Positions 4,960-42,046 are shown, counted from the stretch's first letter. The stretch: DNA of 64,000 bases from Kiritimatiellia bacterium (GCA_017525225.1 JAFXTB010000171.1:19205-83204), one strand, 5' to 3'. The notes: a model not told the origin generated them from the letters alone. A program made the numbers and translations.

Positions 4960-7900
4960 CTACTTGAAGTACAGCGTGGTTCCAAGGAGCGTGCGGCCGG
5001 TCACCACAAGTACGCCCGTGCCGGAGAAATGGACGTCGTCCACCACGTCCACCTCGCCTGCATGGTCGGACGAGCCATAGCGCCGTCCACGCCCGCGCTG
5101 CGGCATGCCGTCCAGCATCAGCGAGTCGATTGAAAGCGTCCCGGTTCCGCCAAGCGCCACGCGTCCGCCGGCATCGACCTTCAGCGCGGTCGTCGCACTC
5201 ACTGCCGGTGCGCTGGCGTTGCATGCGACGGACAACGTGGCATCTGCCGCGACCGTCACGTTCGTGACGTTCCTCAACCGGCCGGAGATCTCAAGCGTTC
5301 CCGCGTCCACGCTCGCCGACCCGGTCATGAGGGAACCGGTCGAAGATACGGTCATGGTGCCCTTGCCGGTCTTCTTGAGGAGCCCCGCCCCACGCAAGGG
5401 ATTGTCCAGCGTGAACGTCATCGTCTTGCCTTCATCGACCTCGATCTCGCCGACGCCTGCAAGGTTGAAGTATGCCGTGAACGAAAAGGCCGTGGCGAGC
5501 GGGTTGAACACGCCTCCAGTGAAAGTGAAGGCCCGGTTGCCAGACATCGCGTTCAGCCGCATGCGGCCGCCGTTGAGGAATATCTCGCCGTTGCCTGTCG
5601 AAGTTGCAAACGTGCCGTTGCATTCGAAGAGTCCACCATCCTGGATGAAGACTCCATAGCCCTTGTTGCGCCTTATCTCCAGCGATTTATTGGCCTTGAT
5701 GCGCAACGTACCGTTCACCAGGTGGTACGTACCAGTACCGCCGGCCGTAGCGGCCGCAGCGGCGAATCCGAGGATGCCGTGCACACCATAGCTGTGGTTC
5801 GGCTCCACAACGCCACCTTCCTGCCTGAACCGCCCGTTGCCAGGATCGGTCGCACTCGAATTCATCGCGTAGAGCGCCGTGGTGCCGCCGACCGACGCGT
5901 TCTCACCGCGAATGACGAATTCCGGCGTATGGTCCGGATCGCTCCGGTCCGGTGCGGAGGGGACGAGCATGACGTTTTCAACGCTTCCCTCGGTGATGAC
6001 ACGTCCAGACTCCACGTAGAGGTAGTTGTCCCTGCTGGCGGTGCCGCTCATGCCGCGCCGCAGCACAAGCGTACCCCTGCCGCGCTTGTACATCTTGCTT
6101 CCACCTCCGTCCAGATGGACAAGATGGTCGAGGACGAGCGTCCTCCCCTCCTCCACGAACACCTCGCCGCCGTTGAAGATGTTGAGGGTGTTGGACGATT
6201 CCGCGGGGGACGAGTTGGTAAGCACACCATCCACGGCCGTCGGCGCGTACGTGAGCGACCTCAGCGTATGGCTGGCGAGGTCGAACTGGAGAGTTCCCGC
6301 GGCAAGCGAGAGATCCGCGTCCGCGTTGCTGCCGGAAGGCAGGACGCCGTTGACCCAGTTGCCGGACGACGACCATTGCCCGTCGGAGGCCTCGCCCGTC
6401 CAGCGGCCGAGGACCACCTCGCCCACCGCAAGGGATCCTTCGCCCGTGATGAAGGCGCAGTTGTTGGACGTATACAGCAGCCCGGCCTGCATCTGCGTGT
6501 CGCCGTACGTCAGGCCGGTTGCCGTGCTCGTACCTGTCAGATGCAGCGTTGCGCCATTCGACACCACTATGTCCCCGACGAGCGCCCCGGGCAGCTGGAG
6601 CGTACCGGCGACGACGGTGACGTCGTTGGAGTGCGCCACCGGGATGCTCAAAGCGCCCGCGCCCGCCTTCGTGAAAGAGCCTTCCCCTGTCGGCGAGCCG
6701 TTGAACGTGATGCTGGAGTTGGCGGGCACGTCGAACGTGGTGTTCCCCAGAAGCGACCAGGCCACCGGCACGACCAGCGCCGAGGCATGCGTGGTGAACG
6801 TGCCGCCGGAGAGGCGGAACGTGTAGCTGCTTGCGGCGGCGCCGGCCAGGGACATCGTACCCCCGTTCAGCTCCAGCCAGCCCACGCCATAGTTGACGTT
6901 GCCTATCAGGCTCGTGCCGCCATCCTGGCGGAATATGCCGACCGAGGGCGAGGATCCCATCGTCAACGTCTTGTTGGAGAAGTTCAGCGTGCCCGACACC
7001 AGATGGTACGTGCCGGTGGCGACACTCTGGCCGCTAGGCGCATCGCAGAGCTGCATGGCGGTACCCCAGCTCGAAGCTGGCGTCACAGTCCCGCCCAGCT
7101 GCGTGTAGATTCCACAGCCGGGATTCGGGAACGCCTCGGTGGTCCTGTTCGGCCCCGCGACGTATGTAGTGCCGTTGTAGACGGCATTGTCGAGGAATAC
7201 CGTCTCGGCTACGCCTTCATCGCGAATCGACCCCAGCTGCGCCGTGACGATCGATACGCTCGACATGGCGCAATCGATCTCGCAACGCCCTTCCTGCACG
7301 TACAGATAGGCATACGGTCCGCTGTTGACGACCGCCGTCGAGACCCCGCCGCAGAATACGAGCGTGCCCTTGCCGCGCTTGTAGAGTGTCGCGCCATCTA
7401 TGACGACAGGACCCGCCAGCGCCAGCGTGTCGCCCTCGCCCACGGTTATGACCGCACCTTCTGCGAAGTGCATGGCCGTGGCGGCCCTGTTGGTAAGCAT
7501 GGCGTCGCCGGCCGCGTCATAACTGAGCGATGAGACGACAACCCCGCCATCCTGCGTGATCTCCCCCGATGCCGCCGAAAGGTCTATGCCGACACTCTGC
7601 CCCAGAGGCGATATGCCCGCCTGCCAGTTGCCCGGCGAAGACCACAGGCCGTCGTCCGCAAGCCCAGACCACGCCATCGTACCGACCAACAGCGTGCCGC
7701 CGCCGGTGACGAACGATCCCACTCCAGACACGTAAGCGCCATCGGCTACGGCGACGCCGCCAAACGTGACGTTCCTGAGGCTGCGCACCATGCCGGACGG
7801 AATACGCACCTTGCCGTCATCTTCGATGACAAGTACGGTGTCGTCCGTGAAGCCAAACCCGTTCGACATGTCTAGTACGCCATTGTCGCGAACCGTCACG

Positions 7901-9249
7901 ACACGCGCGTTGGCGGGGAGCGTCATCACGGACGCCGCCGCCACCACACCCGTCCCGCAGATAGTCATCGACTTGATGTTCGCAGGCACCGTGGCGTTGA
8001 GCGTGCCGCCGGCCACGGTGAAGTCGTTCTGCCCGGAAAGAGCGATCCCTATGGAGAACGTGCCGTTGCTGACCACGACCGGACCGGTGAACTGCTTTGT
8101 ATGGCCACCCAGGACAAGCGACCCCGTGCCCGTCTTGATAATTCCACCCGCGCCGGGGGCATGGTTGCCGAACGTGCATGTGAAGGAATCCAGTACGTTG
8201 AACTCCACGGTTCCTTCAATGTTCAGCGGGCTGCCTGTAGAGATCGTCATGTCGCCGAAAGCCCCGATCAGCGCATTGCTCGCCGTCATCGAACCCGCGC
8301 CCGCATACAATGTAAGCTTGCTGCCCAGCCACAGCTCTCCGCCCAGCAGCTCGTATGCTCCATTCCCGATATTCGTCTTGCTGTCCCAAAGATTGACGGT
8401 ATTCCACTTCGCCTGGCCACCGGTCTGGTGGACGACACCAGTGCCGTAGAACGATACGTAGAAGGTCTTGGTCTGTCCATCGATCACGCCGCCGGATATG
8501 TCGACCAGACCGTATGAACCATGGCCATGCGCATTCAGGAAGCATCCTGCACTCCCGAAATTGGTGGCTACGAGAGTGCCGCCCCGCATGTCGATGATAG
8601 AGCGTGAGCCGTCACCAAACGCCGGCTCCCAGTCGCTCACCACCTTGCTGCCGACCAGCGGGTTGGCTATGCACCCTTCCTCCATCACGAACCTAGCGAT
8701 AGGCTTTGATGGATCGGAGCTGGTACGAAGCGACATTCCCTGCATGTTGCCGGTAGACGCCAGCGTTACAAGCCCCTCCTCATGCAGGAAGTTCCGTGCA
8801 GCATTGCCATAGCCCTTCAGAATAGCGGTAATGCGCCATTCGCCCGCACCGGACTTGTAGAGAGCGGGATATCCGGCCACCACGTTGCAGGCGGTATCCA
8901 GCAAGGCCTGTTCGCCGACAGCCACCCTGGTTATGACGCTCAGCTGGCTGCCGGTGAAGGTGAGCTTGTTGGTGGCGCCAGCCGTGACAGCCGGGATGTA
9001 GACTATCTCGGAGACCTCCTGCGCAGAACCGAGGTTCACGGTCTTGTCGCCGGTGATCACGGAGAAGTCGGCGATGTCGCCACTTCCCGGCTTGCTGCCT
9101 CCGACCCAGTTGGCGCCGGTCTTCCATTCGCCGCCGACATCCTCCTTCCAGTAGTATGTGTCGGCGGGGAGCATGCCGGCCGCCATCAGCATGATCGCTG
9201 CCAGGCATTGCCTCATCGAACGAACGAGGGATGATTCCGGTGTTTTCAT
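4960..9249 (-). CDS. Large secreted autotransporter-associated beta-strand repeat protein with three tandem modules and no beta-barrel
   Basis: ATG at 9249 with AAGGAAGGA RBS; signal peptide; repeats LYKSGAGEW, IIKTGTGSLVL, LYKRGKGTLVF, FTKAGAGAL, MYKRGRGTLVL, LKKTGKGTMTV; ends ...LLGTTLYFK. Confidence 0.85.
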   Translation of the reverse strand: MKTPESSLVRSMRQCLAAIMLMAAGMLPADTYYWKEDVGGEWKTGANWVGGSKPGSGDIADFSVITGDKTVNLGSAQEVSEIVYIPAVTAGATNKLTFTGSQLSVITRVAVGEQALLDTACNVVAGYPALYKSGAGEWRITAILKGYGNAARNFLHEEGLVTLASTGNMQGMSLRTSSDPSKPIARFVMEEGCIANPLVGSKVVSDWEPAFGDGSRSIIDMRGGTLVATNFGSAGCFLNAHGHGSYGLVDISGGVIDGQTKTFYVSFYGTGVVHQTGGQAKWNTVNLWDSKTNIGNGAYELLGGELWLGSKLTLYAGAGSMTASNALIGAFGDMTISTGSPLNIEGTVEFNVLDSFTCTFGNHAPGAGGIIKTGTGSLVLGGHTKQFTGPVVVSNGTFSIGIALSGQNDFTVAGGTLNATVPANIKSMTICGTGVVAAASVMTLPANARVVTVRDNGVLDMSNGFGFTDDTVLVIEDDGKVRIPSGMVRSLRNVTFGGVAVADGAYVSGVGSFVTGGGTLLVGTMAWSGLADDGLWSSPGNWQAGISPLGQSVGIDLSAASGEITQDGGVVVSSLSYDAAGDAMLTNRAATAMHFAEGAVITVGEGDTLALAGPVVIDGATLYKRGKGTLVFCGGVSTAVVNSGPYAYLYVQEGRCEIDCAMSSVSIVTAQLGSIRDEGVAETVFLDNAVYNGTTYVAGPNRTTEAFPNPGCGIYTQLGGTVTPASSWGTAMQLCDAPSGQSVATGTYHLVSGTLNFSNKTLTMGSSPSVGIFRQDGGTSLIGNVNYGVGWLELNGGTMSLAGAAASSYTFRLSGGTFTTHASALVVPVAWSLLGNTTFDVPANSSITFNGSPTGEGSFTKAGAGALSIPVAHSNDVTVVAGTLQLPGALVGDIVVSNGATLHLTGTSTATGLTYGDTQMQAGLLYTSNNCAFITGEGSLAVGEVVLGRWTGEASDGQWSSSGNWVNGVLPSGSNADADLSLAAGTLQFDLASHTLRSLTYAPTAVDGVLTNSSPAESSNTLNIFNGGEVFVEEGRTLVLDHLVHLDGGGSKMYKRGRGTLVLRRGMSGTASRDNYLYVESGRVITEGSVENVMLVPSAPDRSDPDHTPEFVIRGENASVGGTTALYAMNSSATDPGNGRFRQEGGVVEPNHSYGVHGILGFAAAAATAGGTGTYHLVNGTLRIKANKSLEIRRNKGYGVFIQDGGLFECNGTFATSTGNGEIFLNGGRMRLNAMSGNRAFTFTGGVFNPLATAFSFTAYFNLAGVGEIEVDEGKTMTFTLDNPLRGAGLLKKTGKGTMTVSSTGSLMTGSASVDAGTLEISGRLRNVTNVTVAADATLSVACNASAPAVSATTALKVDAGGRVALGGTGTLSIDSLMLDGMPQRGRGRRYGSSDHAGEVDVVDDVHFSGTGVLVVTGRTLLGTTLYFK

Positions 9250-9278
9250 GGTTCTGTCCTTCCTTTGCAATGTGTTCA

Positions 9279-10780: not shown

Positions 10781-10801
10781 GATCCCTCCTTTGAAGCCCT
10801 T

Positions 10802-14024: not shown

Positions 14025-16169
14025 TCAACGGAAGTTCAGCTGGAAGCCGGGGATGAAGTAGTACTCACAGCATCCGGCGTCGGCGGAAGCTCCACTCAAC
14101 CGCCGCGACGCGTTGTTGCGCTGGATCGTGACGCCGTACTTGCCGGAGCTTGCGATGGTGTAGCCCGAGCCGAGATCCTGCGGGCCGTTGCGCTTGCCCG
14201 TCCCCATCCAGGTCTCGACAGGCGCCCTGTTGATGGCCTGCGAGTGCTCGGCAAGCCTGTAGTCGCGGTTCGCTGCGTCAAGGAAGAGTGGCTTGGACGA
14301 GTCGGGGAAGCTGTTGCCTTCCGTGCGGGGATCGATCTCCCATGTCGTCTGCTTGCCGAATATCGAATAGTTGACGTTCGTTGTCGTAGAGTATGTACGG
14401 CCATATATCTGCCCGTAGCCGCCCGTGTTGTTCACCACGATGCTCGACCTTACATATATGTTGGACGGCGCGGCATGCCCCCATGCACCTTCCTCGTAGC
14501 CGTGGATCATCCAGGAACTTTCTCCAATGGTGTTGTTGGCTATGGTGCAGTTCTCGAACAGCAGTTCGATGTTCGAATCATAGCGTGCACCTGTGTGCGC
14601 ATATACCGATGCGGCGTTTTTCCCGAAGGAGTTGTCTGTGCAAAGGCAGTTGCGGAAACGCACCGTCCAGTGCCGGCCGGCGTTTGAATTGACCAGCCAC
14701 ACCCATCCACCCCATGTACAGACGGATGTGTCGTTGTCGGTGAAGTAGCAGTCTACGAAGTCGACCAGGGACTCCGCCGAGATGTTGCTGATCCAGAACA
14801 AGCCGCCATGGATGGCATTCGTCTGACGGTTGGCGCGGAACACGCAGTTGGAGACAAGGAACTTGGATGTGTCGTCATCCTTGAAGATGATCCCTATCTT
14901 GGTCTTGCCAACGTTGCCGACGACCGCGCTGTCAACAAGCGTGCTGTTCCCCGCCATGTAGATGGCGGGCGATCCCCCTTGCCACGTATCTCCGGTATTC
15001 CCTATGTTGCAGGTTATGAGACAGTTCCTCGCATTGCAGCGGCTGCCGAGATGAAGTCCCGTGGCATTGTTGTACTTGGTATCCGACAGGCACGCATCGT
15101 AGTTGTTGGACGAAGTGACGTTCAAGACATCGATGTTCCTGTAGCAGTATATGGCCCCGCCATAGTGGTTGGTGCAATCGTGGACCAGGCAGTCTTCAAG
15201 GTACGCCTGGTACTTGGTTCCGTCCGCACCGTCGGCCAATCCGCTTCTGGCGTAGATTCCGGCACCAAGCCCACCGCCGGTGTGAGGCATGTCGATCACG
15301 CACCCCGATACGACCGTATCGAACACGCCCATCCTCGGGCGCGAAGATTCGTATTTGGTGTTGTCGTCGCAGCCTACATAGATGCCTGCCCCCACCGGAA
15401 AGCAATCTCCTGCATTCATCCTGATCGCGCAGTTGCGTATGACGCAGTTCGACACCATGCCGTAGTAGTCGAAGATGCCAGCGCCGTACGCGTTTTTTCC
15501 GGCGACGCCGGTGGCGTTGGTGATGGAACAGTTCTCGATCGTGCAGCCCATAATCCGAGACCAGAATGCCGCTATTCCGGCCCCATTCGCGCTAGAGGCA
15601 CCACCGTCCATGGTGATGTGGCAGTCGCGGACGATGCAGTCCACCACACGCCCCGTGGATCTAAGGAAAATGCCGGCGCCGGATGAATTCAGCGCCACGC
15701 AGTTCGTGACGGTAAGTCCCTCGGCGGAGCTGCTCCATCCTCCGTACACCTGTATGCCCCTGCATTGTCCCTGCCCGTCCAGGACCACATCCTCCGGGTT
15801 GCCTGTCAGCGAACGGATGTGGATCTCACCGACCTTGTAGGTACCATCGTTGTCGGAAAGCCTTATTTCCTTGGTGAGCCGGTAGTATCCATTGGAGATG
15901 ATAAGCGTATGCTGGCTTACGTACTCCGCGCCGGCTTCTGCCGATGCCGCGATCATCTTGGCAGGCACCAGCTCCGGTGACTTCATGGCTGTGGCCCAGC
16001 TAAGGCCGTCGTTTTCATCGTCTCCCCATGGAGCCACGTACCAAGTGGTGGCTGCGCCGACCATGCGGACCACGCCCGCCACTGCAAGCATCGCCATCAG
16101 CATGGCTTTCGAGCCGCCATGAACCAGGCGTGCGCACCTGGACTTTCCATCGTCGCTTGTTCTTGCCAT
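14025..16169 (-). CDS. Secreted right-handed parallel beta-helix protein
   Basis: ATG at 16169 with AGGAG RBS; WYVAPWGDDENDGLSWATA start motif; repeated NC/SNC/GAGI turns; DYRLAEHSQAIN; ends ...YYFIPGFQLNFR. Looks lower in GC than neighbours. Confidence 0.8.
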   Translation of the reverse strand: MARTSDDGKSRCARLVHGGSKAMLMAMLAVAGVVRMVGAATTWYVAPWGDDENDGLSWATAMKSPELVPAKMIAASAEAGAEYVSQHTLIISNGYYRLTKEIRLSDNDGTYKVGEIHIRSLTGNPEDVVLDGQGQCRGIQVYGGWSSSAEGLTVTNCVALNSSGAGIFLRSTGRVVDCIVRDCHITMDGGASSANGAGIAAFWSRIMGCTIENCSITNATGVAGKNAYGAGIFDYYGMVSNCVIRNCAIRMNAGDCFPVGAGIYVGCDDNTKYESSRPRMGVFDTVVSGCVIDMPHTGGGLGAGIYARSGLADGADGTKYQAYLEDCLVHDCTNHYGGAIYCYRNIDVLNVTSSNNYDACLSDTKYNNATGLHLGSRCNARNCLITCNIGNTGDTWQGGSPAIYMAGNSTLVDSAVVGNVGKTKIGIIFKDDDTSKFLVSNCVFRANRQTNAIHGGLFWISNISAESLVDFVDCYFTDNDTSVCTWGGWVWLVNSNAGRHWTVRFRNCLCTDNSFGKNAASVYAHTGARYDSNIELLFENCTIANNTIGESSWMIHGYEEGAWGHAAPSNIYVRSSIVVNNTGGYGQIYGRTYSTTTNVNYSIFGKQTTWEIDPRTEGNSFPDSSKPLFLDAANRDYRLAEHSQAINRAPVETWMGTGKRNGPQDLGSGYTIASSGKYGVTIQRNNASRRLSGASADAGCCEYYFIPGFQLNFR

Positions 16170-17034: not shown

Positions 17035-17042
17035 TTTACCAC

Positions 17043-25600: not shown

Positions 25601-27876
25601 ACGCCATTCGCCACCTTGATCGTGCGTACACGGTCACGCGAGACGCGTGACCCTACCGACACATCGCCTGCCAATGCGCGCAGCTCCACTTCGGTCGCGT
25701 CGCCGACTTTCAGCTCGAACGGCTTCGGACACGAACCCACCTTCTTTGCCGACACCCTGAAATCCTGATCCAACATGAGACCCATGCGTTCCCATTTCGG
25801 ACGTTTCAGAAATTCACGCATGGCATCGGTAATTATCGGCACCTTCCTATCGCCCGCCGCCTTGAACAGCACCACCTTGGCCGTGCACGGCTTGTCGGCG
25901 CGGATCTCGAACGATCCGTCACCGGGAATCGTCCAGTTCTCCGAGGTGTCCACATCCGTGAACACATACATCTTCGCGGGGTCCAGTCCGCGCGGCCTGA
26001 CGACGAACGCCGTCGTCGGGGTGTGCTTGCGCCTGAAGAGCTGGATGAAACCGGAACCGTCGTCGGCATCGACGAATTCCCATCCGCACCACAGGTCGCT
26101 TCCATTGTCGGAGCGCGTGAGCGGATAGAAGTCCTTCACGTAATAGCGCCTGATCTTCTCCCACAACAGGTAGTTCGCCTTGAGGTTGTCCCAGTTCACG
26201 TTTGCCGGCGCCAGGCCGGTCCCCACGTTGAGATATGGCATCAGACGGCTGCGCAACTCGTAGGGATCGGCGGTTTTCGGACGCCCACCGCCATAGAGCG
26301 GCACCCACAGGGATATACCCTGCGTCTGCATCTGCTGCTCGTCCAGGGGACCACTCGTGTCTGTGCGCCATAGCGGCGCCGAATAGGAAAGCGACTCCAC
26401 GTCGTTCCTACAGCCGCCCTGCGAGCAGTTGTCGATACGCCTGCAGGACGGATTCGACGCCAGCACGGCCTCATACAGCCGATAGAAGCCTTCCACGTGC
26501 TTCATTTCGGAAATGCCCACGCGGTTCTGTTCGCCGTTCCGCGCATCGTGCTTGCGCCAGAAGTGCAGAGGCGGGAAGTTGAAGTCGAGCCGGAAGTAGT
26601 CCGCATGCTCGCGCTTCAACACGGAATCCACCGTCTTGAACCCCCATTCCCACGCCTTGGGATCGCCAAGGTTGAGGAACGCGCCGCGCCCGGTGTTGCC
26701 GGCGTAGAAGTATTCGGGGTGCGCCTGATATACGCGGGCGGAAGGCACTACGCGCTCCAGCTCGAACCACAGGATGCCATCCTTCGCGCCAAGCTTCTCG
26801 CGGGCGTAATCGAACACCTCGCCAGGTCCCTTCGGGAAACGGACGGGATCCGTGTCGTAGTTGCCGGTCCAGCGCCAATGCGCCTCGCCGCCTTTCTTGT
26901 TCCACTGGCTCTTCCATTCGTACCATGCCGCATCTATCCACCAGTAGTCGATCTTGAAGCCATGCGCGGCATACGCATCCACACCTTCCTTGTGCGTGGC
27001 GCTCGACCAGCTGTCGCTATCGAAGCCGACGCTTCGGGCCGAGCACATTGTCTGGTACGGGATGACTTTGCCGTTCAGACGCGGCTCGTTGCATTCAAGA
27101 AACCACTGGCGCCAGATGTTCTGCCCCTCGATCCAGTCGCCACGCCTGTAGAAAAGCACCGTCGCGCGCGGACCGCGCACGGCCTCGCCGGGATTCAGGT
27201 AGAACCGGCTGTCATTCATGCCTGCCGTGAATCTGAGCGTCCCATCTTCCTGCGCCAGGAAATCAGCCTGCCACTGCCCGGCCCAGCCGATCGCGGCGAT
27301 CATGCCCCGTCCGGCGTCTGGCGTCTCGACGTTGAAATAGGGCCAGGCCGTTTCACACGCCCTCCCGCCGGTAGTCTCTACATGGAGGCGATGGCTTTGA
27401 GGCCGAAGCCACCATTCGCGCGTCACCGGCGTGGTGAACTGCTGGTAGTCGTCGAGCGACTGCATCGCCCCAGCGGCATGGTGGACGACATGATGCTTGC
27501 GCTTGGACACGGCGGGAAGCAGGAAATCGAAATTGCGCACATTGGAGATGATGCCCGATTTCGCCGTCGACACGTTCCTGAAGCGCAGCAGCCAGGAGAG
27601 CGCTGGGAAGCCAGGATATTTCCGTATCTCCAACATTGCCTCGACCGTTCCGGACGGCTCGCGGAAGACATAGCCGGCATCGGTCTTCGTCCGAGTCCAG
27701 CCGCCGGCACGGAAATCCTTTCCGTTGTAGGAGAACGTGAACGGCAATTCCTTCAATTCGCCGCCAAAAACGTGAGCTGACCACTCCTCCGCCTGCTTAA
27801 GTTCGTCAGCGGTCGGTACGAGCGCATACGCCGCGGCAATGGCAAAAGCCACCGATAGAACGATCGTCTTTTTCAT
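22609..27876 (-). CDS. Triple fusion: GH36 alpha-galactosidase + tyrosine-phosphatase-like domain + GH78 alpha-L-rhamnosidase
   Basis: GH36: WWIDAAWY, YFRLDFN, IDNCSQGGCRND. PTP: NVRDIGGY, LYRSA, DLRT, HCAGGADRTG. GH78: VDMGVNFAG, FTFHGFRYVEV, SDCPARERFGYGGD, TTLWETW, SHNHPMFG. Confidence 0.88.
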   Translation of the reverse strand: MKKTIVLSVAFAIAAAYALVPTADELKQAEEWSAHVFGGELKELPFTFSYNGKDFRAGGWTRTKTDAGYVFREPSGTVEAMLEIRKYPGFPALSWLLRFRNVSTAKSGIISNVRNFDFLLPAVSKRKHHVVHHAAGAMQSLDDYQQFTTPVTREWWLRPQSHRLHVETTGGRACETAWPYFNVETPDAGRGMIAAIGWAGQWQADFLAQEDGTLRFTAGMNDSRFYLNPGEAVRGPRATVLFYRRGDWIEGQNIWRQWFLECNEPRLNGKVIPYQTMCSARSVGFDSDSWSSATHKEGVDAYAAHGFKIDYWWIDAAWYEWKSQWNKKGGEAHWRWTGNYDTDPVRFPKGPGEVFDYAREKLGAKDGILWFELERVVPSARVYQAHPEYFYAGNTGRGAFLNLGDPKAWEWGFKTVDSVLKREHADYFRLDFNFPPLHFWRKHDARNGEQNRVGISEMKHVEGFYRLYEAVLASNPSCRRIDNCSQGGCRNDVESLSYSAPLWRTDTSGPLDEQQMQTQGISLWVPLYGGGRPKTADPYELRSRLMPYLNVGTGLAPANVNWDNLKANYLLWEKIRRYYVKDFYPLTRSDNGSDLWCGWEFVDADDGSGFIQLFRRKHTPTTAFVVRPRGLDPAKMYVFTDVDTSENWTIPGDGSFEIRADKPCTAKVVLFKAAGDRKVPIITDAMREFLKRPKWERMGLMLDQDFRVSAKKVGSCPKPFELKVGDATEVELRALAGDVSVGSRVSRDRVRTIKVANGVAVIDNLLVGTRYTWTARRGGKTVGTGTFETEAGVPRICRMDGVGNVRDIGGYATLDGRRVKQGMLYRSAALNRQAHGRKEQPRSEWRVGESLLTDAARKEAEATFGIRLELDLRTDWESYGMTSSPLGPSTRWVNVSSSNYDGMKTETAKAAFAKCFRELNNPANLPAIFHCAGGADRTGSLAWLLGGILGVAEDDLDKDWELTVFNYDLVKFNHWNYIDGLKRYLNETFPKMPVQRQCVAYAKACGITDEEIARFRELMLECPRSTGTGQAEWITGQYVVPGEDDYAAHFADAPAPVLEREFTLAAKPVKRAVWRIASPGMYDASVNGKRVNVVALPLWTAFDRRVLEDEYDVTAFVKEGRNTLAIELGNGWWNPLPMKMWGRFNLRKTLPHGTPTAKATLEVTYADGTTERIVTDRDWSASDGPVLRNNLYLGEKRDMRRRAGAGAPRQAARVVSDAPKGAVLPRGDAPPVIVYDRWKAKDVKPLPDGKWIVDMGVNFAGTIRATVKGSHDGDVVTFRYGEILYPDGKLNVMTSVCGQQKKAKIDPPGIAEQKDTVICPEAERFVYEPRFTFHGFRYVEVAGLRVAPSPEDFEALAWSADVKDSTSFECSDPKINRLRDVCRRTFRSNMQGVQSDCPARERFGYGGDLAATAESFVLNYDMSAFYRKVVRDRCDMEALHGVFSTTSPSVFPNQCVERCRFGWAVDAPIVVDLLLRYYGDRRTMREAYPFLRRFLFRCAETFDTRHVPPCIGDHEALEKADKVLTAQCHYHQFLKLTAKFARLLGETPDAEKFEATARELEAAFAAAARYVPAKGFVGDGRQGEECFAIYHGMLPPEDLDAAYRILKENVAGHDYAMSTGIFSTQYILEILTARGDAEIAGRVFSHKGFPGWFNMLDNGATTLWETWAPSDNTYSHNHPMFGSCAAWLMRGILGIQVAEDAVGCDKVRIAPYAVAGVTWAKGHLDTPKGRILVSWRLENGRIKVEKQLPAGIVEL

Positions 27877-29275: not shown

Positions 29276-32200
29276 CTACCTTAGGATTATCTGGAATCTC
29301 GGATAGGCCATGCGTACCTTCCTGCCGTTCAGGCAGATGACCCACGGCGGGGGAACGTCCGTGACCGTCGGGATCTGTCCGGAATAGTTCTCTGGCAGGA
29401 ACAGCAGCGTATAGCCGCGATCGGCCTTCTCCGCAAGTTCGCCGTTCAGAAGGTTGAACGAGCTTGGAAGCGTCATCGCGGACGTCACGGTGGTGGCGTT
29501 ACCAGCCTTCGCGGCGGCGATATCAAGAGCGCACTTGTTCGCGGGCAATGTCACGCTGCCAGCGTCGTTGACAACCGTGCCGCCCGCAAGCACCACCTGC
29601 TCCACGGCAGTGAGGTCGGGGATGTCCTGCGTAGTCAGGTCGAGCGTACCACCCTCCAGCCTTAGCGCGCGTGTGGAAGTCAACGCGGCGGCGTTCGACG
29701 AGACGAGCGTTCCGCCTGCCACGACGGTGGCGCCCGTGTAGCTGTTCGCGCAGTCGAGGACGAGCTTACCCGCGCCTTTCTTCGTGAGACCGCCGGAACC
29801 ATTCGCGGAAAGCGTGCAGGCTACGGTGAACGTATTCGTGTAGCCGCCCTTCGAGATCGTCGCCGTTGCGGACGTGTAGTTCTGTCCACGATTCAGCACG
29901 CGGAAACCCGTCACCTTGCCGGTCGTCGTATTGTAGATGGCAACGGCTGTCGCGCCGGTACCGGTGCCGGTTGGATCGGTGATCGTCACCGCCGGGGCCG
30001 CGATGTAGTCCCAGGCCTTGAGCGAAGCTATCGCGTTTGGAAGCGGAATGGATTCCACGCCGTTGCCCGTCGGCGCCTCCAGAGGCATGCCAACGGCGTT
30101 GTCGCGTCCGGCGGTGTCTATCGTCGCACCGCCGGAATGGATATAGACATGATCCGTCCCCGCCGTGAAGTTACGGAACAGCTTGCCCTTGCCGGTTGCG
30201 CTGGTATAATCTACCGACGTACGCAGAATGCCGTTGTTGAACGACACCAACGCCTTGTTGCCGGTCAAATCCGTCGAAACTTTGTTAAAGGTGGATTTCA
30301 ATATCTTGCTGAAACCGTTAGCTGCGATCGTTCCACCGTTGTTGATGTCGACCTCGCCGATGGAGTTGAACTGGCCGGCGAGCGCAATACCACTTGTCCA
30401 CTGGATCGAGTTCGTCGCCGAGGCGTTCTCTCCGTCCACGGCGAAAATGGCATGCGATCCCCCCGTCTTGTTTTCGCCATCCTGACGCGGGAAATACAGT
30501 ATCGAGGATGAAGTGAGCGTACCGCTGCCCGATACGCAAATCGTCGCCTGGGCGCCAGCCTGGCCGGCGCCTATGTCCTGTGTCGCGAACACGCCGCCCT
30601 TGATGTCTATGAACGACGTCACGCCTACCCTGCGCCCCATGCGGCAGTTGTTGTTGTTGTTGACGAACCTGCCGCCCTCTATGCTGGCATACATGTTATG
30701 GTAGCTACCGAAATACTGGTAACCGCCCGGCGTGATGAACGTCCCGCCATGCTGGAAGTACGATCCCTGCCAGTCCGAGTACTTAGCAGGGAGAGAGGGG
30801 TCTAAGAGATGCGACGATATCCTGTTGACGGTATCGCCGCCATCGATCCTGTTGGTCACGACCGCGCCTTCGTACAGTTCGATGATCCCTCTTCGCGTGT
30901 TGGACGAGTCGAGATAGTTGCGGGCGGCATACAGACCCGCATAGTTGCTCACGGCAACACCGTTCGTCTTGCTCTCATTCACGTAAGTACCCTTCACCAC
31001 GAAGCGCGCCACTTCAGGATAGTCGGCCGCGACGAACACGCAGTTGGAGCCTTCCGCCTCGGCATACGTTCCGGCGGGAACCGTCACCGTGCCGCCGCGA
31101 ACATCGATCCAGCCAACGCTCATCTTCTCGCCGGGCTGGCCCGCAAGGATCAGTTCGCCGCCTTCGTTGATGTAGTTCTGCCGTCCGTCCCCGGAAGATG
31201 CGATCGTGAGCGCATTCGTGCCACCGTGGTAGATCATAAGAGGCTCGTCGAGTGTGCGCGAAAATGTCCTGTCGGCCCCAAGCTCGTAGTTGAACGCAAA
31301 GAACTTGGTGCCTATCACGGTCGGCCACACGAGATTGTCGCTTACGCCCTTCCACATCGCATAAAGGGCATTGTCGGTGAGGTTCGTCGACGAGAGGTCG
31401 ATGTTGAGGACGCTATTCGTTCCACCCGTCACCCTGCCGTCAAGGACGCCGTATAACGGACCTGCGGCGTTGACCGTCACGCCTTTGTTGATCGTCAGCG
31501 CACCGGTGGTCGTGTTGGTGGTACAATTAAGGTTGAGTGTCGCGGGATAGTTGGCTCCGCTGGTGGCAATGATATCGGCGCCGCCGGAAATGACGTTCGG
31601 GACATCAAACGAGCAGAAGATCCCCAGGTTGTTTGCCTCTCGCAGGTCGAAAGTCAGCGTCCCGCTCGCCGGGGTGGTGAGAGTACCCCAAATGCCGTAG
31701 CTGCCAGTCCACCCCTTGCTACTTGCTTGCGAAGTTGCAGACGAGCATATCGTGGCATCGCCTTCGCAGACAACGTCCCATTCACACTTTTTAGCAGTCT
31801 GTATGCGCTGAGGACCCTCCTGAATCTTCGCGTTTGGCCCAAGGCGGATGACCGCCTTGTCGCCCTTCCAGACATAGCCGGAAGGCGCCCTGTTCATGTT
31901 GCCAGGCGTACTGTTCTCGAGATGCACCTTGCAGCTGCCGGTTGCATATATCTCACCCGGACCGTATATCGTATCTCCGCACAGTTCAAGCGTTCCGCCA
32001 TCTGCGGTCAGCTTATGGCCGTTGAAATACATGGCTTGTGTCGCACGCGGTCCCACCGTGGGCGAACACTTGAAAAGCGTATCGGCCGTGAGATGTACGG
32101 TACAGCCGTACATGATCTGGTTCTGGCTGTTTCCGATAGCACAGAGGGCGCCAGCACCCCCTACGCCCGTGCCGCCGATGTAGATGTTGTGCTGCCGGAG

Positions 32201-32602
32201 CAACGACCTGTTGGCGGCAACGCCACTTCCACCCAGTTCTATTGTCGCACCCGGTTCAAGGCGTAGCGTACGCGTACGAGTATTGTCATTGGTGCCGTCC
32301 GCCCATGACGTCATGAGGCGCACGTAGCCGTTGGATATGCCGAAATCCCCTTTCCAGTGCGACAGATCCCTGTTCATGACCAGGCGTCCGCCGCCTTTCT
32401 TTATGAGGGCATTCGACGTAGCGAGCGCATTCGCGTCGGCAGCGGTTATCGTATAGTCGCCTTCATTGTCCTCGACGGTTATCGTCACCTGCCCGGCGAC
32501 CGAGGTATCGACCATCGCCGCAAGAGAATGTAAAGTGAAAGATGTAGAATGTAAAATGGCGAGCACGGCGAGCAATGGATACGTTTTCACGAATTTCATC
32601 AT
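29276..32602 (-). CDS. Large secreted autotransporter-associated beta-strand repeat protein, no beta-barrel
   Basis: Start MMKFVKTYPLL; LIKKGGGRLVM, GGATIDTAG, GGLTKKGAGKLVLDCANSYTGATVVAGGTL; ends ...MAYPRFQIILR. Confidence 0.85.
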   Translation of the reverse strand: MMKFVKTYPLLAVLAILHSTSFTLHSLAAMVDTSVAGQVTITVEDNEGDYTITAADANALATSNALIKKGGGRLVMNRDLSHWKGDFGISNGYVRLMTSWADGTNDNTRTRTLRLEPGATIELGGSGVAANRSLLRQHNIYIGGTGVGGAGALCAIGNSQNQIMYGCTVHLTADTLFKCSPTVGPRATQAMYFNGHKLTADGGTLELCGDTIYGPGEIYATGSCKVHLENSTPGNMNRAPSGYVWKGDKAVIRLGPNAKIQEGPQRIQTAKKCEWDVVCEGDATICSSATSQASSKGWTGSYGIWGTLTTPASGTLTFDLREANNLGIFCSFDVPNVISGGADIIATSGANYPATLNLNCTTNTTTGALTINKGVTVNAAGPLYGVLDGRVTGGTNSVLNIDLSSTNLTDNALYAMWKGVSDNLVWPTVIGTKFFAFNYELGADRTFSRTLDEPLMIYHGGTNALTIASSGDGRQNYINEGGELILAGQPGEKMSVGWIDVRGGTVTVPAGTYAEAEGSNCVFVAADYPEVARFVVKGTYVNESKTNGVAVSNYAGLYAARNYLDSSNTRRGIIELYEGAVVTNRIDGGDTVNRISSHLLDPSLPAKYSDWQGSYFQHGGTFITPGGYQYFGSYHNMYASIEGGRFVNNNNNCRMGRRVGVTSFIDIKGGVFATQDIGAGQAGAQATICVSGSGTLTSSSILYFPRQDGENKTGGSHAIFAVDGENASATNSIQWTSGIALAGQFNSIGEVDINNGGTIAANGFSKILKSTFNKVSTDLTGNKALVSFNNGILRTSVDYTSATGKGKLFRNFTAGTDHVYIHSGGATIDTAGRDNAVGMPLEAPTGNGVESIPLPNAIASLKAWDYIAAPAVTITDPTGTGTGATAVAIYNTTTGKVTGFRVLNRGQNYTSATATISKGGYTNTFTVACTLSANGSGGLTKKGAGKLVLDCANSYTGATVVAGGTLVSSNAAALTSTRALRLEGGTLDLTTQDIPDLTAVEQVVLAGGTVVNDAGSVTLPANKCALDIAAAKAGNATTVTSAMTLPSSFNLLNGELAEKADRGYTLLFLPENYSGQIPTVTDVPPPWVICLNGRKVRMAYPRFQIILR

Positions 32603-32757: not shown

Positions 32758-32889
32758 TCACTTGATCTCGATGACCGTCGGCGGGGCGAAGTAGCGGATC
32801 TCAAGGGTGGGCGAACAGCCGACGAAGACGCTGTTGGACGATATCGCGTCCTGGAGATGGACGGGAACGAACGCGATCCGCAGGCCCGG
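32758..32889 (-). pseudogene. 3' remnant of a secreted-protein gene, truncated at the intergenic repeat
   Basis: Hand translation: PGLRIAFVPVHLQDAISSNSVFVGCSPTLEIRYFAPPTVIEIK*. Gene-like GC3-rich codons; no start; upstream the frame runs into repeat copy A and meets TGA within about 12 codons. Confidence 0.6.
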
Positions 32890-32989
32890 GCGAATAGCGG
32901 CGGAACGGTGACTCCCCTCGCATCAGAAACGGTTTCCGCTCAACGCGAAAGTCCGAACCAGCATGTCTCGCCAGCGATGAGCTCCAGCG
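32887..32989. repeat. Intergenic dispersed repeat, copy A
   Basis: CGGGCGAATA...ATCAGAAACGGTTTCCGCTCAACGCGAAAGTCCGAACCAGCATGTCTCGCC...ATGAGCTCCAGCG; 51 bp (32922-32972) identical to 35170-35220. Confidence 0.92.
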
Positions 32990-34965: not shown

Positions 34966-35039
34966 TTATGCAGTTCCTTTCTGGTTTGGGCGCATGGCCA
35001 CATGCGGACGCCCCAGATGTGGCAATTCACCGAGGCAAG

Positions 35040-35090: not shown

Positions 35091-35098
35091 GGACATTC

Positions 35099-35237
35099 TA
35101 CGTCACGAAATATGTAAATGTCAGATTTCGTGACGGGCGAATAGCAGCGGAATGGAAATGATGCCCAGTATCAGAAACGGTTTCCGCTCAACGCGAAAGT
35201 CCGAACCAGCATGTCTCGCCCGCTATGAGCTCCAGCG
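35099..35237. repeat. Intergenic dispersed repeat, copy B, including an 11-bp inverted repeat
   Basis: CGTCACGAAAT-N13-ATTTCGTGACG (35101-35135) followed by the core shared with copies A and C. Confidence 0.92.
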
Positions 35238-35349
35238 AAAGGATTCCGTCTGCTGTCGGCTCCAGTTTCCCGGTCTTGAGATTCACTATAGTGGCGGAAT
35301 ACGGCAAACGGAACTCGTATCGGCCAGGTGCCAGGCAATGAAAGTGTTT

Positions 35350-36792: not shown

Positions 36793-36860
36793 AACTTCCC
36801 CTTCTCAGCAAGAACAATAAGTATTATTGCATATTCCCCGTCGGAAAACAACCATAAACT

Positions 36861-36893
36861 GTCACCGAATTACAAAAAGTAAAATTCCGTGAC
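36861..36893. promoter_or_regulatory. Second inverted repeat upstream of the ATPase gene (putative operator)
   Basis: GTCACCGAATT-N11-AATTCCGTGAC (one mismatch); related to the IR at 36914-36948, which starts about 54 bp further on. Confidence 0.6.
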
Positions 36894-36911
36894 GGACGCC
36901 ACTGTCGATTT

Positions 36912-37039
36912 TACGTCACGAAATATGTAAATGTCAAATTTCGTGACGGGCGAATAACGGCGGAACGGCGACTTCCCTCGCATCAGAAACGGCACCTGGT
37001 CAACGCGAAAGTCCAAACCAGCATGTCTCGCCCGCTATG
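36912..37039. repeat. Intergenic dispersed repeat, copy C, including an 11-bp inverted repeat
   Basis: TACGTCACGAAATATGTAAATGTCAAATTTCGTGACGGGCGAATA...CATCAGAAACGG...TCAACGCGAAAGTCCAAACCAGCATGTCTCGCCCGCTATG; direct repeat of copy B, 1813 bp away. Confidence 0.92.
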
Positions 37040-37043
37040 CGAA

Positions 37044-38975: not shown

Positions 38976-38986
38976 GGTCCCTCCCA

Positions 38987-41900
38987 TCAACGGAAATTCA
39001 CGGTGAACCCCGCCGGCACAAACGAGATTCTGTCCGTCTCCACCTCCACATACTTGCGCGTCGAGCCGCCGCCGCGCAGCCACATGGTGCCGGTCGTCTG
39101 CACGCCGCCTCCCGCCGTGAGAACCGTGACCGGCGCGCCGGTCACGGGACCGATCCCTGACGGCGCGAAGTAATGCATCACCGAAGCCAGCGTGGCCACG
39201 CCGCTCACCGGCAACAGCGTCGCGCCCGAGGTGGCCAGCGTGGCGCCCTCGGCGAACGTAATCGCGCCCACGGTCGTGTTGGCCGCGTCGAACGGCGCGG
39301 AATCGTAGGTGCCGTCCGCACGCACGCTGATCGCGTTGATGGTGAGCGCCTTGGGCGCGCCCACCGCGTCGGTCGCCCGGAACCCGCCGCCCGGTGCGCC
39401 CAGCGTGAGCGTCGCGAGCGTCGCACCAGTCGCGTTGGTGTTCACCACCACGCCCACGATGCCGTCCGCGACGACCTCCGTGAGCTGGCCGTTCGTGAAC
39501 GCGTTCATCACGAACGACTGCGCCCCATTGCCCTTGATCGTGAGCGGCCCGTTAAGCTCCCAGCGCGGTCCGCGGCTCGGCACCGTATCGCCAGAGAATC
39601 CGGCGGGGTAGGTTGTCAGACTCGCCGGGTAGAGCGAATCGGCGACCATGTTCGAGTACACGGAGCAGACCGTCTTCGCCTCCGAGAAGTCGAACGTACC
39701 GCCGTTCGGGCCGATCGTCACCTTCAGGTCAACCGTGTAGCCGCCGTCGAACGTATCGGTCCGGCTCACGTTGGTCGCCCTGCGCCCCACGAAGAGGCGA
39801 TTGCCGGTCGAGCCGCTATGCGCATAGTCGGGATCGTATCCAAACCCGCTGCCCAGCTTGTAGGTACCGCCGTCAAGCGTGACGAACGTCCCGGATTCGT
39901 ACGGCACACCATAGTGAGCGGAGGAATCTAATGTGTGCGTAACGGGTGCCATCACATATGCGCGATCCGTCTCTAGCACGCCGCCGTTCACGACCTTGAT
40001 GTCAACCATCGGGCAACGGTCTGCCGCATCGTTCTTGAGCTGGTTGGCCGGCCATGTGCTGAAGATGAACCGCCCGTCGGGTTCCTTCAGCGTCACCGTG
40101 CCGCCGTTCACGAGAAGCGTGGAATGGCTGCGCCAGTAACCACCACCGATCGAGAACGCACGGTAGCGTTCAAGTGTGAGACTTGCGCCGGACGCCACCT
40201 CTAGCGTGCTGGGATCGGTGCCTCGCGTGGCCACCGAGACGCCTGTGCCGTCTGTCCCAGAGGAGAAAAGCACCTCTACGCCATCCGTGAGCAGCGCATG
40301 ACGAGCTCGTTCGATGATGGTCATCGTGGCGTTGCCCTCGAACTTCCACTTTTTGCCCGCGCCGGAAAGCACAAGATTGCCGAAGTGCAGGTACAGATCC
40401 CCAACATCCTCCTGTACGTCCGCCGCCTTCACAGTACCGCCGCCCGTGAACTTCACGCAGCCGGACGGCCACACGTCTTTACCATCGACCAGCACGGCGT
40501 CCGTGACTTCGTTCGTCACTGACAGTCTTCTCTTCAGCAGAACCGCGCCGGCGACCTCGCCGGTGACGTTCAGCGCCGAACCGATCCGCGAACTAGAATC
40601 GACCGTCAGGGAAGACGAGATCGTGCACGGACGGGCAAAGTAGATCATGCCACCGTCGAGAACGAGATCCGTTGCGGCAGTGAAGCCGTCACCGCCAACG
40701 ACAAGCGTCTCGCCGACGCCCACGGTGATCGTCCCGGCAGGCTCCGTGACGAGGCCGCGAACACTCGCCCGGTAGTTGCCCGTGCCGAGGATGCGCGACG
40801 CGTCAACGACCGAGCCGCTCGGCAGATAGAGGATCGCGCCGTCCGTCGTGGTGACGGTCATGTTCGCGTTCCAAGTGTTCATCGCCGGCAGAAACAGCGT
40901 ACCATTCCCGGATACCGTGATGTTCCCCGTATATCCGGAAAGGTCGTCGATCTTGATCCGCCTCCCGGAGAACACCACCGCGCCAGTGATGCCGGCCGGC
41001 ATGGCGGAGAGGTGCTTGTCGTCGCCCGTCACCTTCACCGTACCGGAGAAGCCGTTGAAATTGATCTCTTGCGGGGAACCTTCCGCGATCTCCACCGTTC
41101 CCGCGCCAGACACGGAAAACCGCCCAGAGGCAGGCAGGCTTGCCAACCTCACCGTCGCGCCGCTCTTGACTTCAAGCGGCTGCGTACCGCCGTTGGCGAC
41201 GTAGTAGGCCTCGCAGTCGCCGATCGTGCTCGTCGTGCCGTTGCCAGTGACGGTGATGGAACCGAGATCGAGCGTCACACCCTCGAACGTCTGGGAGGCC
41301 TTGAGCGAGGCGCCATTGGCAAGGATGAGGTGATCCGTGTAGTCCGCGCCCAACGTAAGCGCATGCGTCGCCGAATCGAAGATGATGTACGTTTTCGCGT
41401 CGGCCAGGGTGATGGACTTCGCCTTCACCGAGGCAACGGATGCCGAGAGCTGAAGCTTCGCGCCATTGGTGAACACCATGTCGCAACCAGAAAGGTCGTT
41501 CGCTTTCGAGAATCTGTATTGCCCGAGCGCGGCGGTGGCGTCATACTTGAACGTCCACGTCACATCGTCCTCGGTCGTCACGGGAAGATTGAAATTGACG
41601 CCCGTGTTGGAATCCCACATCTGCGACGCGGTGATATGCAACCCGCCGGAGAAGAACATGGACATCACCGCGTCCCACGCTCGGGGCGCGGTGAACCCTC
41701 CCGCGCCAACCTCCATGCGCCCATTGCCGGTCCAGTTGCGTGCGCCTGAGGCATACTTGATGCCATAGGGTTTTATCGTGATATCAGCATTGAGCGTACC
41801 AGGATCCATCCCCGTCACGGCCGGCGTGAGCCAATCAGGAGTGTAGGCAGTATAGACGCAGAACCAGTTGCCGTCCACCCAATCCACGCCCGTGCTGCCG

Positions 41901-42046
41901 TCTGTCGCAAGACGATACGCACCAGATGCGGAGATCGCGTTGTTCCTCGCCCCGTTCACATTCGCCGTGAACCAATAGTCAATCGGATCGGCGCGAAGAC
42001 CGACCGTGGACAACAGTACCAGCGCAAACAGTCCCATCTTTTTCAT
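38987..42046 (-). CDS. Large secreted beta-helix/passenger-like protein, no beta-barrel
   Basis: Start reassigned to MKKMGLFALVLL; Gly/Thr/Val-rich beta-strand repeats (SGAGTVEI, LVLDGG, VNGGTVTL, GPNGGTFDF); ends ...SFVPAGFTVNFR. Confidence 0.75.
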   Translation of the reverse strand: MKKMGLFALVLLSTVGLRADPIDYWFTANVNGARNNAISASGAYRLATDGSTGVDWVDGNWFCVYTAYTPDWLTPAVTGMDPGTLNADITIKPYGIKYASGARNWTGNGRMEVGAGGFTAPRAWDAVMSMFFSGGLHITASQMWDSNTGVNFNLPVTTEDDVTWTFKYDATAALGQYRFSKANDLSGCDMVFTNGAKLQLSASVASVKAKSITLADAKTYIIFDSATHALTLGADYTDHLILANGASLKASQTFEGVTLDLGSITVTGNGTTSTIGDCEAYYVANGGTQPLEVKSGATVRLASLPASGRFSVSGAGTVEIAEGSPQEINFNGFSGTVKVTGDDKHLSAMPAGITGAVVFSGRRIKIDDLSGYTGNITVSGNGTLFLPAMNTWNANMTVTTTDGAILYLPSGSVVDASRILGTGNYRASVRGLVTEPAGTITVGVGETLVVGGDGFTAATDLVLDGGMIYFARPCTISSSLTVDSSSRIGSALNVTGEVAGAVLLKRRLSVTNEVTDAVLVDGKDVWPSGCVKFTGGGTVKAADVQEDVGDLYLHFGNLVLSGAGKKWKFEGNATMTIIERARHALLTDGVEVLFSSGTDGTGVSVATRGTDPSTLEVASGASLTLERYRAFSIGGGYWRSHSTLLVNGGTVTLKEPDGRFIFSTWPANQLKNDAADRCPMVDIKVVNGGVLETDRAYVMAPVTHTLDSSAHYGVPYESGTFVTLDGGTYKLGSGFGYDPDYAHSGSTGNRLFVGRRATNVSRTDTFDGGYTVDLKVTIGPNGGTFDFSEAKTVCSVYSNMVADSLYPASLTTYPAGFSGDTVPSRGPRWELNGPLTIKGNGAQSFVMNAFTNGQLTEVVADGIVGVVVNTNATGATLATLTLGAPGGGFRATDAVGAPKALTINAISVRADGTYDSAPFDAANTTVGAITFAEGATLATSGATLLPVSGVATLASVMHYFAPSGIGPVTGAPVTVLTAGGGVQTTGTMWLRGGGSTRKYVEVETDRISFVPAGFTVNFR

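Follow-up and report, generated by a model that had tools for sequence, protein, structure and literature searches.

A short, basic-ended C-terminal tail on large secreted proteins of Kiritimatiellia looks like a previously undescribed sorting-type tag

Introduction

C-terminal sorting tags decide which exported proteins stay on the cell surface, and each new class so far has led to a new enzyme or secretion component. Tripartite signals such as PEP-CTERM combine a signature motif, a hydrophobic segment of helix length and an arginine cluster, as laid down in passages of one study of this class (10.1101/2023.06.07.544157). In secretion by the type IX system (T9SS), cargo exported by Sec bears a signal at its C-terminus that serves both to export it and to hold it on the surface, an arrangement that sections of two articles present as common to diverse adhesins and enzymes (PMC12618676, PMC9143113). 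Here we describe a short C-terminal tail that closes four large secreted proteins (carriers 1 to 4) in a 64,000-nucleotide stretch of a Kiritimatiellia genome, hereafter the window (contig C69, positions 19205-83204, of genome G000). G000 is a gut/rumen-type member of the class, with 4.2 Mb in 180 contigs and 61.5% GC.

All four carriers have Sec-type N-termini, with lengths taken from the likely starts, and carriers 1 and 3 contain PATR ('autotransporter-associated beta strand') repeats by both Pfam and NCBIfam. A preliminary description of the window held that none of them has a beta-barrel, a TpsB partner, a PEP-CTERM signal or a T9SS C-terminal domain (CTD). Indeed, searches with Pfam and NCBIfam find no beta-barrel, two-partner secretion (TPS) domain, PEP-CTERM or T9SS domain in the four proteins.

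A strictly terminal motif in G000

The ends given in the preliminary description, LLGTTLYFK, IPGFQLNFR, YPRFQIILR and PAGFTVNFR, were all confirmed on minus-strand open reading frames (ORFs), and the motif that they were said to share is real and far wider across the genome than the window set. Genes were predicted in G000 with a home-made caller based on codon usage (2962 genes, 85% coding); because stop codons fix the C-termini, these are unaffected by the choice of starts. Counting back from the end, the logo shows Pro, Arg or Lys at -9/-8, Gly at -7, Thr, Leu, Met, Phe or Ile at -6, any of several residues at -5, Leu, Ile or Val at -4, a variable and often polar residue at -3, Phe, Leu or Ile at -2, and Arg or Lys at -1. 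Gly -7 and the terminal Arg/Lys alone are near-invariant, acidic residues are nearly missing, and conservation fades past about nine residues from the end. Positions -11 to -16 often hold a hydrophobic stretch. The common pattern first described therefore stands as a shared tail, except that its Pro/Gly 'turn' resolves into the near-invariant Gly -7 plus Pro, Arg or Lys at -8/-9.

The motif G..h.h[KR]$ (h, hydrophobic; a dot or x, any residue; $, the terminus) closes 79 of all called G000 genes. Among proteins of at least 500 amino acids (aa) with a signal-peptide-like N-terminus it ends 63 of 517, where its internal frequency would predict 0.86, and among proteins of at least 800 aa it ends 50 of 249. 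For proteins of at least 400 aa there are 69 motif ends (the carriers counted below), compared with a mean of 1.9 and a maximum of 7 in 200 shuffles of the last 30 residues, and with 1 to 6 matches when the test window is moved 1 to 100 residues upstream. Rejected shadow ORFs end in the motif in 2 of 1038 cases. The motif must be strictly terminal: exactly one residue follows the last hydrophobic position in 74 cases, whereas zero, two, three or four residues follow it in 9 to 18. That one residue is Arg or Lys in 69 of the 74 (54 Arg, 15 Lys), a single basic residue rather than a cluster, with Arg or Lys sometimes also present at -8/-9.

A nine-position matrix built from the tails, with its threshold at the 99.9th percentile of internal 9-mers, places 80 of 2530 proteins above threshold when 2.5 are expected. 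These include variants without the Gly, such as YPRFQIILR, and all four window carriers pass, at 12.2 to 18.3 bits. Large proteins with the tail number about 75 to 80, or about 3% of the proteome.

Could such a pattern be an artefact of chance, of a general excess of C-terminal Arg/Lys, of shadow frames in GC-rich DNA, or of a DNA repeat at gene ends? The gene calls are home-made, and 428 of the 1164 G000 proteins of at least 400 aa (37%) end in Arg or Lys. Nevertheless, the shuffle, offset and shadow-ORF controls yield 1 to 7 matches against 69, the same ends appear in the independent protein predictions of a public database, and the carriers have signal peptides and Pfam domains. Moreover, the terminal Arg/Lys is encoded by eight different codons and the Gly by all four; because codons differ between copies, selection acts on the protein and not on the DNA. 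The artefact reading is already close to refuted by these controls, and we assign it hardly any probability. As an observation apart, a TAG stop follows 33 of the 69 motif genes and 343 of all 1164 genes encoding at least 400 aa.

Secreted carriers of many families

A signal-peptide heuristic applied to proteins of at least 400 aa finds the motif in 63 of 756 signal-peptide-like proteins and in 6 of 408 others (Fisher p = 3.5e-7), a contrast that understates the difference because the heuristic over-calls (1444 of 2962 genes positive). By eye, 67 of the 69 carriers have signal peptides. Specifically, four of the six carriers scored negative are mis-started or truncated secreted proteins, and the other two, DnaX and aconitase, are cytoplasmic and are chance matches. 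The preliminary description had proposed comparing secreted with cytoplasmic proteins as a check on its idea of an export signal, and that idea survives, with 2 of 69 carriers cytoplasmic, about the chance expectation. A lipobox-like signal occurs in 8 carriers only, so most carriers have no lipid anchor.

BLAST at E<1e-10 groups the 69 carriers into 29 clusters unrelated in sequence. Among 28 representatives, PATR is found in 4 and LamG in 5, 12 belong to no family, and the remaining domains include PKD, PA14, Flg_new, Gly_rich_2, DUF1565/DUF5123 and Chlam_PMP. The carriers are mostly without recognisable enzyme domains, and many are encoded in polysaccharide-degradation loci. With their PATR/beta-helix, LamG, PKD and PA14 architectures they look like adhesins or glycan binders.

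The tail beyond the fold

Complete matches to LamG, PKD and Gly_rich_2 stop 11 to 16 residues short of the terminus. In the beta-helix carriers the domain ends in D-x-G-x-x-E-[YF], followed by 4 to 5 residues and then the tail; carrier 2, for example, has the conserved end DAGCCEY with the same spacing. The tag is therefore independent of cargo family. AlphaFold2, given carrier 2 and 14 relatives, returned a confident beta-helix, with a predicted template modelling score (pTM) of 0.86 and a predicted local distance difference test (pLDDT) mostly above 90 over the body, and left residues 695-714 without secondary structure at pLDDT 36 to 48. In the model of the last 450 aa of carrier 1, built with its 7 paralogues, a small hairpin follows the beta-helix, and the final ten residues have pLDDT 39. 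These models are an indication, not proof, that the tail is an appendage outside the fold.

A structural or folding role that involves no sorting would make the tail an edge strand capping the last domain or a C-terminal folding seed, arising by convergence or shared ancestry. Passenger-type beta-helices are known to need C-terminal folding elements, the tail has the pattern of an amphipathic beta-strand, and the hydrophobic stretch at -11 to -16 suggests a hairpin. However, the tail follows domains that are already complete (LamG, PKD, Gly_rich_2, beta-helix), its exact terminal position is not required of a cap, and it is nearly missing from the cytoplasmic proteins of G000. Furthermore, on PATR proteins elsewhere its place is taken by PEP-CTERM or by barrels, devices that sort rather than cap. 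The preliminary description had itself offered a capping strand as the test of its proposal, and the tail is unstructured beside a confident beta-helix in both models. We consider a purely structural role unlikely.

The tail is also conserved among homologues. All metagenomic orthologues of carrier 2 (30 to 59% identity) and one paralogue end in G/A-x-x-h-x-h-R/K; in the alignment, Arg or Lys is terminal in 15 of 15 sequences and Gly occupies -7 in 14 of 15. The orthologues of two window carriers keep the tail across 30-72% identity. Nine close homologues of carrier 3 end in YP[RQS]F..[IV][ILF]R and a tenth in Phe, while four remoter homologues end in RGVMLILR, NGMLLKLL, DGTLIRVL and DGTMISLR, and a still remoter PATR homologue ends in PEP-CTERM. 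Carrier 4 has homologues in 2 genomes besides G000 (41 genomes searched, G000 included), and for cargo of its type homologue-based tracing fails because the genes evolve too fast. For the eight-paralogue family of carrier 1, a search with a two-sequence alignment yielded 65 pattern matches and no relative.

Distribution among relatives

The GatA protein of G000 is 74 to 86% identical to homologues in metagenome-assembled genomes (MAGs) that are titled Kiritimatiellae or Kiritimatiellia, or in some cases bear older Lentisphaerae or Verrucomicrobia labels, and that were recovered from samples of goat, sheep, deer, yak, horse and human gut. Five GatA loci, 56 to 83% identical (L038, L051, L080, L092 and L112), are titled Clostridiales, Anaerovoracaceae, Methanomethylophilaceae, Desulfuromonas and Desulfobacterium. 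Records with titles such as these are probably mis-binned or mislabelled MAGs.

Tails occur in several of the sampled relatives. A 400-kb sample of G022, a complete genome of the same family as G000, has 3 of 73 proteins of at least 500 aa ending in GTM[IV].F[RK], and five more ending in GT.[IV].F or V and then H, F, L, Q or Y. In G029, of the same order, a random 200 kb shows the tail on 2 of 34 proteins of this size, and these two, together with four PATR-region frames, end in [GA]T[LIV]L[LF][LV]R. In G095, of another family, 4 of 16 such proteins end in G[TA][LV][IM].[IV]R. The tail also ends PATR frames in G052, G064, G082 (two), G059 and G041. A random sample of G084 contains none in 49 proteins of at least 500 aa, and G088 has one unconvincing regex match (GPGADVR) in 33.

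Elsewhere in the class, PATR frames end in PEP-CTERM (G088, G084, G047, G069, G062, G089, G050, G079, G048 and G124), as they do in four genomes of the same phylum outside the class (G106, G101, G129 and G127). Still other genomes outside the class (G132, G110 and G116) end such frames in an autotransporter barrel (...GFRIGF, ...LDYRF, ...LNRKF). Among 15 PATR-region frames drawn from 7 genomes beyond the class, none bears the tail. Three different C-terminal devices thus alternate on PATR cargo within the phylum, two of them known to serve in sorting, and because PEP-CTERM occupies this place in sister lineages, the tail probably does the same job.

A DNA pattern for the commonest variant of the tail was run over 61 genomes of the class with the reversed pattern as control. 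The pattern detects only the G-T-h-h-x-h variant, and it also accepts His, Gln, Asn or Ser at the end, and TGG where a stop should stand; looser patterns gave signals no better than their controls. Counts against controls are 48 vs 3 in G029, 41 vs 3 in G095, 27 vs 9 in G041, 14 vs 5 in G000, 9 vs 2 in G091 and 9 vs 1 in G077. The PEP-CTERM lineages G047, G048, G050, G062, G069, G079, G084, G088 and G089 give 0 to 4 against 0 to 7, which does not exceed what the controls suggest. The tail was found in several Kiritimatiellia families and only in part of this class among the genomes searched, which supports the lineage specificity that the preliminary description had claimed. Tail-rich and PEP-CTERM-only genomes within one class provide a countable trait, and profiling on it could identify the missing machinery.

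This distribution raises the question of whether the tail is a shrunken PEP-CTERM, its tripartite signal collapsed to P-x-G-h-x-h-x-h-R and still cleaved or transferred by an exosortase. Sister lineages place PEP-CTERM on the same class of cargo, Pro is enriched at -8/-9, and the end is typically Arg. An exosortase is kept in 10 of 10 genomes checked, tail-rich ones included, and G000 encodes a single exosortase-EpsI fusion for only 2 classical PEP-CTERM proteins, both small, as found by regex. In addition, at locus L216 (G082:C116:1500-6500) a 597-aa PATR frame ends VVPEPYQVVHKGNSLVLTIIPDGTIVIVR, with VVPEP lying 24 residues before GTIVIVR; this PEP-like motif may be left over from an ancestor with PEP-CTERM.

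Other evidence points away from such a collapse. The six residues after the Gly have an alternating strand pattern and cannot form a membrane-spanning helix, and known exosortase-type signals, in the account given in parts of the study cited above, depend on a transmembrane segment that displays the motif to an enzyme within the membrane (10.1101/2023.06.07.544157). The G000 enzyme reaches the general exosortase model only and no subtype cut-off, and exosortases are equally present in the checked genomes without the tail, so that no co-distribution is seen among the 10. The last 100 aa of 30 carriers match no sorting-signal family, PEP-CTERM models included, at E<=10 in NCBIfam (release June 2026) or Pfam, in agreement with the preliminary claim that no named family covers these ends. 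A collapsed PEP-CTERM is accordingly improbable in our judgement.

Two side observations concern the exosortases themselves. EpsI is fused to exosortase in G000 and G022 and is a separate downstream gene in G088 and G084. In the tail users G029 (C2:390002-390589), G052, G077 and G091, exosortase domains are embedded in longer open frames, of 1000 to 1800 aa.

Candidate partners and secretion routes

Gene families encoded within three genes of carriers show enrichment only of regulators and enzymes. The neighbour 'family' that emerges is a chained mix of enzymes, AraC- and GntR-like regulators and TAT enzymes, with no conserved partner. The sole Omp85 protein of G000 (PF01103) is BamA. An autotransporter barrel (PF03797) has no match in the carriers or anywhere in G000, nor do ShlB/TpsB (PF03865), SprA_N (PF14349) or PorP_SprF (PF11751) match in this genome; the negatives for ShlB, SprA_N and PorP_SprF are weak because the control genomes (14 for the latter two) are silent too.

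With barrels and the other routes not found in G000, a type II secretion system (T2SS) deserves consideration, with the tail as the recognition signal by which folded periplasmic beta-helix and lectin-like proteins would pass through the secretin. Beta-helix pectate lyases are classical T2SS cargo. Of the six secretin genes of G000, one runs across the window's first positions, and in Kiritimatiella glycovorans a T2SS is named as the outer-membrane export route in a portion of one report (PMC5148204). However, secretins number 1 to 7 in every one of the 61 class genomes, tail or no tail, and none of the 15 prepilin-like genes of G000 lies within two genes of a carrier. Secreted glycoside hydrolases of the same loci need export as well, yet have no tail, and the T2SS signals known to us are conformational rather than linear. 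We therefore regard recognition by a T2SS as quite improbable.

As a PorV-like candidate we considered a FadL-family outer-membrane protein, PorV being FadL-like. No such protein was found in the tail-rich G095, and one is present in G088, G089 and G050, so the candidate was rejected.

A lineage-specific sorting or surface-retention tag

A tail that is terminal, exposed, confined to secreted proteins, independent of the fold and conserved has the profile of a sorting or retention tag. We therefore favour, as rather probable, the reading that it is a lineage-specific C-terminal tag for sorting or surface retention, with the consensus [P/R/K]-x-G-[T/L/M/F/I]-x-[L/I/V]-x-[F/L/I]-[R/K]-COOH. From sequence we infer an export or anchoring role along the following lines. 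Carriers would leave the cytoplasm by Sec, and the short, flexible, amphipathic strand at the very end of the chain would be read by a partner. That the motif has to close the chain, and that it has the pattern of an amphipathic strand, together suggest that a free C-terminus is recognised by strand pairing. The partner may sense the free carboxylate beside the basic side chain, and beta-strand augmentation onto an outer-membrane or secretion-apparatus protein would be the most likely mode. As a result the cargo would be brought to the cell surface or retained there, with the tag taking the place of the PEP-CTERM (exosortase) signal or of the type V beta-barrel on the PATR proteins of sister lineages.

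Several points weigh against this sorting-tag interpretation. Seven or eight residues are very short for a specific signal, and the last residue is not fixed: in G022 it varies among R, K, H, F, L, Q and Y, and Leu closes two distant homologues, so that a basic end is preferred and not obligatory. The low pLDDT of the tail may itself result from the shallow alignments (15 and 8 sequences), and both the gene caller and the signal-peptide test are home-made. Relatives were sampled in part, and partly with PATR frames as the aim, so absence means only 'not found in those searched'. Finally, carrier neighbourhoods hold no partner beyond the regulators and enzymes noted above, the FadL candidate fails, and both secretins (61 of 61 class genomes) and exosortases (10 of 10 checked) are present irrespective of tail use.

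A stronger form of the sorting-tag reading is that the tail defines a surface-display pathway not previously seen in diderm bacteria, in which about eight residues, with neither barrel nor membrane helix, would engage, through the free C-terminus, a dedicated outer-membrane or periplasmic receptor outside the known secretion systems. We put this forward only tentatively, as a possibility that is more doubtful than the tag itself. If true, for about 3% of the proteome of gut Kiritimatiellia the pathway would have supplanted both type V barrels and the PEP-CTERM/exosortase route, and it would place large glycan-binding proteins beside secreted glycosidases.

The tag marks roughly 80 of the largest proteins in a gut/rumen lineage specialised in complex polysaccharides. 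These proteins are now filed as 'autotransporter-associated repeat' or hypothetical proteins, and the tag flags them as a probable cell-surface layer for glycan binding or adhesion.

The window and its other genes

The coordinates of the carriers, their tails and other features of the window are collected in Table 1. The genes between the carriers encode enzymes (GH127, GH78 rhamnosidase, melibiase and GH10), an oxidoreductase and a two-component system; this is a locus for polysaccharide degradation. According to the preliminary description, most catalytic enzymes in the window end otherwise than the carriers, and this is borne out by the enzymes named, GH127, GH78 and GH10 among them, which end without the motif.

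Table 1. Carriers, tails and other features of the window (positions counted from its first nucleotide unless a contig is given)
Feature	Position	Strand	Description
Carrier 1	4960..9249	minus	1429-aa PATR/beta-helix protein; signal peptide MKTPESS...AGMLPA; one of 8 paralogues in G000
Carrier 1 tail, LLGTTLYFK	4963..4989	minus	stop at 4960-4962; matrix 14.4 bits; pLDDT 39, no secondary structure
Carrier 2	14025..16169	minus	714-aa right-handed beta-helix protein; weak DUF5123 and beta_helix_1 matches; signal peptide
Carrier 2 tail, IPGFQLNFR	14028..14054	minus	matrix 18.3 bits; pLDDT 36-48
Carrier 3	29276..32599	minus	1107-aa PATR protein; signal peptide starts MKFVKTYPLLAVLAIL
Carrier 3 tail, YPRFQIILR	29279..29305	minus	variant without Gly at -7; matrix 12.2 bits
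Carrier 4	38987..42046	minus	1019-aa secreted protein; signal peptide MKKMGLFALVLLSTVGLRA; no Pfam/NCBIfam family
Carrier 4 tail, PAGFTVNFR	38990..39016	minus	matrix 17.7 bits
Remnant frame	32758..32922	minus	ends EIRYFAPPTVIEIK followed by stop; internal stop upstream
Secretin gene	G000:C69:17933-19402	minus	489 aa; overlaps window 1-198; one of six G000 secretin genes
Secreted protein with PF18582	10802-13999	minus	1065 aa; hydrazine-synthase-alpha middle domain (70 bits)
Fusion protein	22609-27876	minus	1755 aa; melibiase-like, Y_phosphatase3 and complete GH78 alpha-L-rhamnosidase domains
735-aa family member	2732-4939	minus	no Pfam match

The frame at 32758, which had been described as a remnant ending in APPTVIEIK, was recovered with that end, and it is a remnant because an internal stop precedes its end. 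It is similar to the end of a 194-aa protein encoded at C152:29349-29933 (...APPTVIEVK). Other short ORFs in G000, of 53 to 200 aa, also carry a good tail (for example C169:7607-7924, C94:31065-31343 and C73:6027-6278). Such short tail ORFs, the window frame among them, are probably 3' remnants of decayed carriers or frames cut by contig ends.

Three of the neighbouring genes deserve mention in their own right. The secreted protein with the hydrazine-synthase-alpha middle domain has two CxxCH haem-binding motifs in its translation, which is unexpected in a glycan-degradation locus. The fusion protein listed in Table 1 joins three domains in one chain. Lastly, the 735-aa family beside carrier 1 has paralogues at C40:44480-46687 and C92:7037-9268 of G000 and always adjoins a member of a 1410-aa PATR family. 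Its members end in L.[LIV]R.[VI][TS][AG]R, an Arg-terminal pattern other than the tail.

Comparison with known C-terminal signals

We found no description of the tail in the open-access articles searched, and it looks like a previously undescribed C-terminal sorting-type tag. Like PEP-CTERM, LPXTG, GlyGly-CTERM, PGF-CTERM and MYXO-CTERM, it lies at the extreme C-terminus, occurs dozens of times per genome and has a basic end, and like the tripartite signals it is shared by unrelated proteins that have N-terminal signal peptides. It lacks all three parts of such signals, having neither PEP nor another three-residue signature, no segment of transmembrane length and no basic cluster. Five residues separate Gly -7 from the terminal Arg/Lys, and polar residues are frequent among them at -5 and -3. 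Whereas tripartite signals span about 25 to 30 residues with two to five basic ones, the tail has about 8 conserved residues and one basic residue.

The CTDs of the T9SS (TIGR04183 for type A, TIGR04131 for type B, with PorV and PorP/SprF as shuttles) are folded units that contain several motifs and span about 70 to 100 residues. In contrast, only about 8 residues are shared here, and no CTD model matches. The T9SS is known in bacteria on the Bacteroidota side of the tree and is not known in PVC bacteria. Type V passengers resemble the carriers in their PATR repeats and beta-helical architecture, and in other Verrucomicrobiota such proteins do end in barrels.

The beta-signal of the beta-barrel assembly machinery (BAM) has a consensus that G-x-x-h-x-h resembles, and both are terminal amphipathic strands in which a Gly is followed by alternating hydrophobic residues up to the end of the chain. 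The tail differs in sitting on proteins without a barrel and in placing Arg or Lys last, with the aromatic or hydrophobic residue one position in. This distinction, first drawn in the preliminary description from the aromatic end of the BAM signal, is borne out in G000, where 17 signal-peptide-like proteins end in h.h.h.[FWY]. Among the 14 of these that were scanned are four outer-membrane families, namely BamA (...FTIGYDF), a BBP2_2 porin, FadL and DUF481, and four glycosidases. The classical aromatic beta-signal is thus still in use, and the Arg/Lys tail is something else, although its likeness to the BAM signal hints that it may bind through strand pairing. The tail is far shorter than any described sorting class and does without the membrane helix that those classes share.

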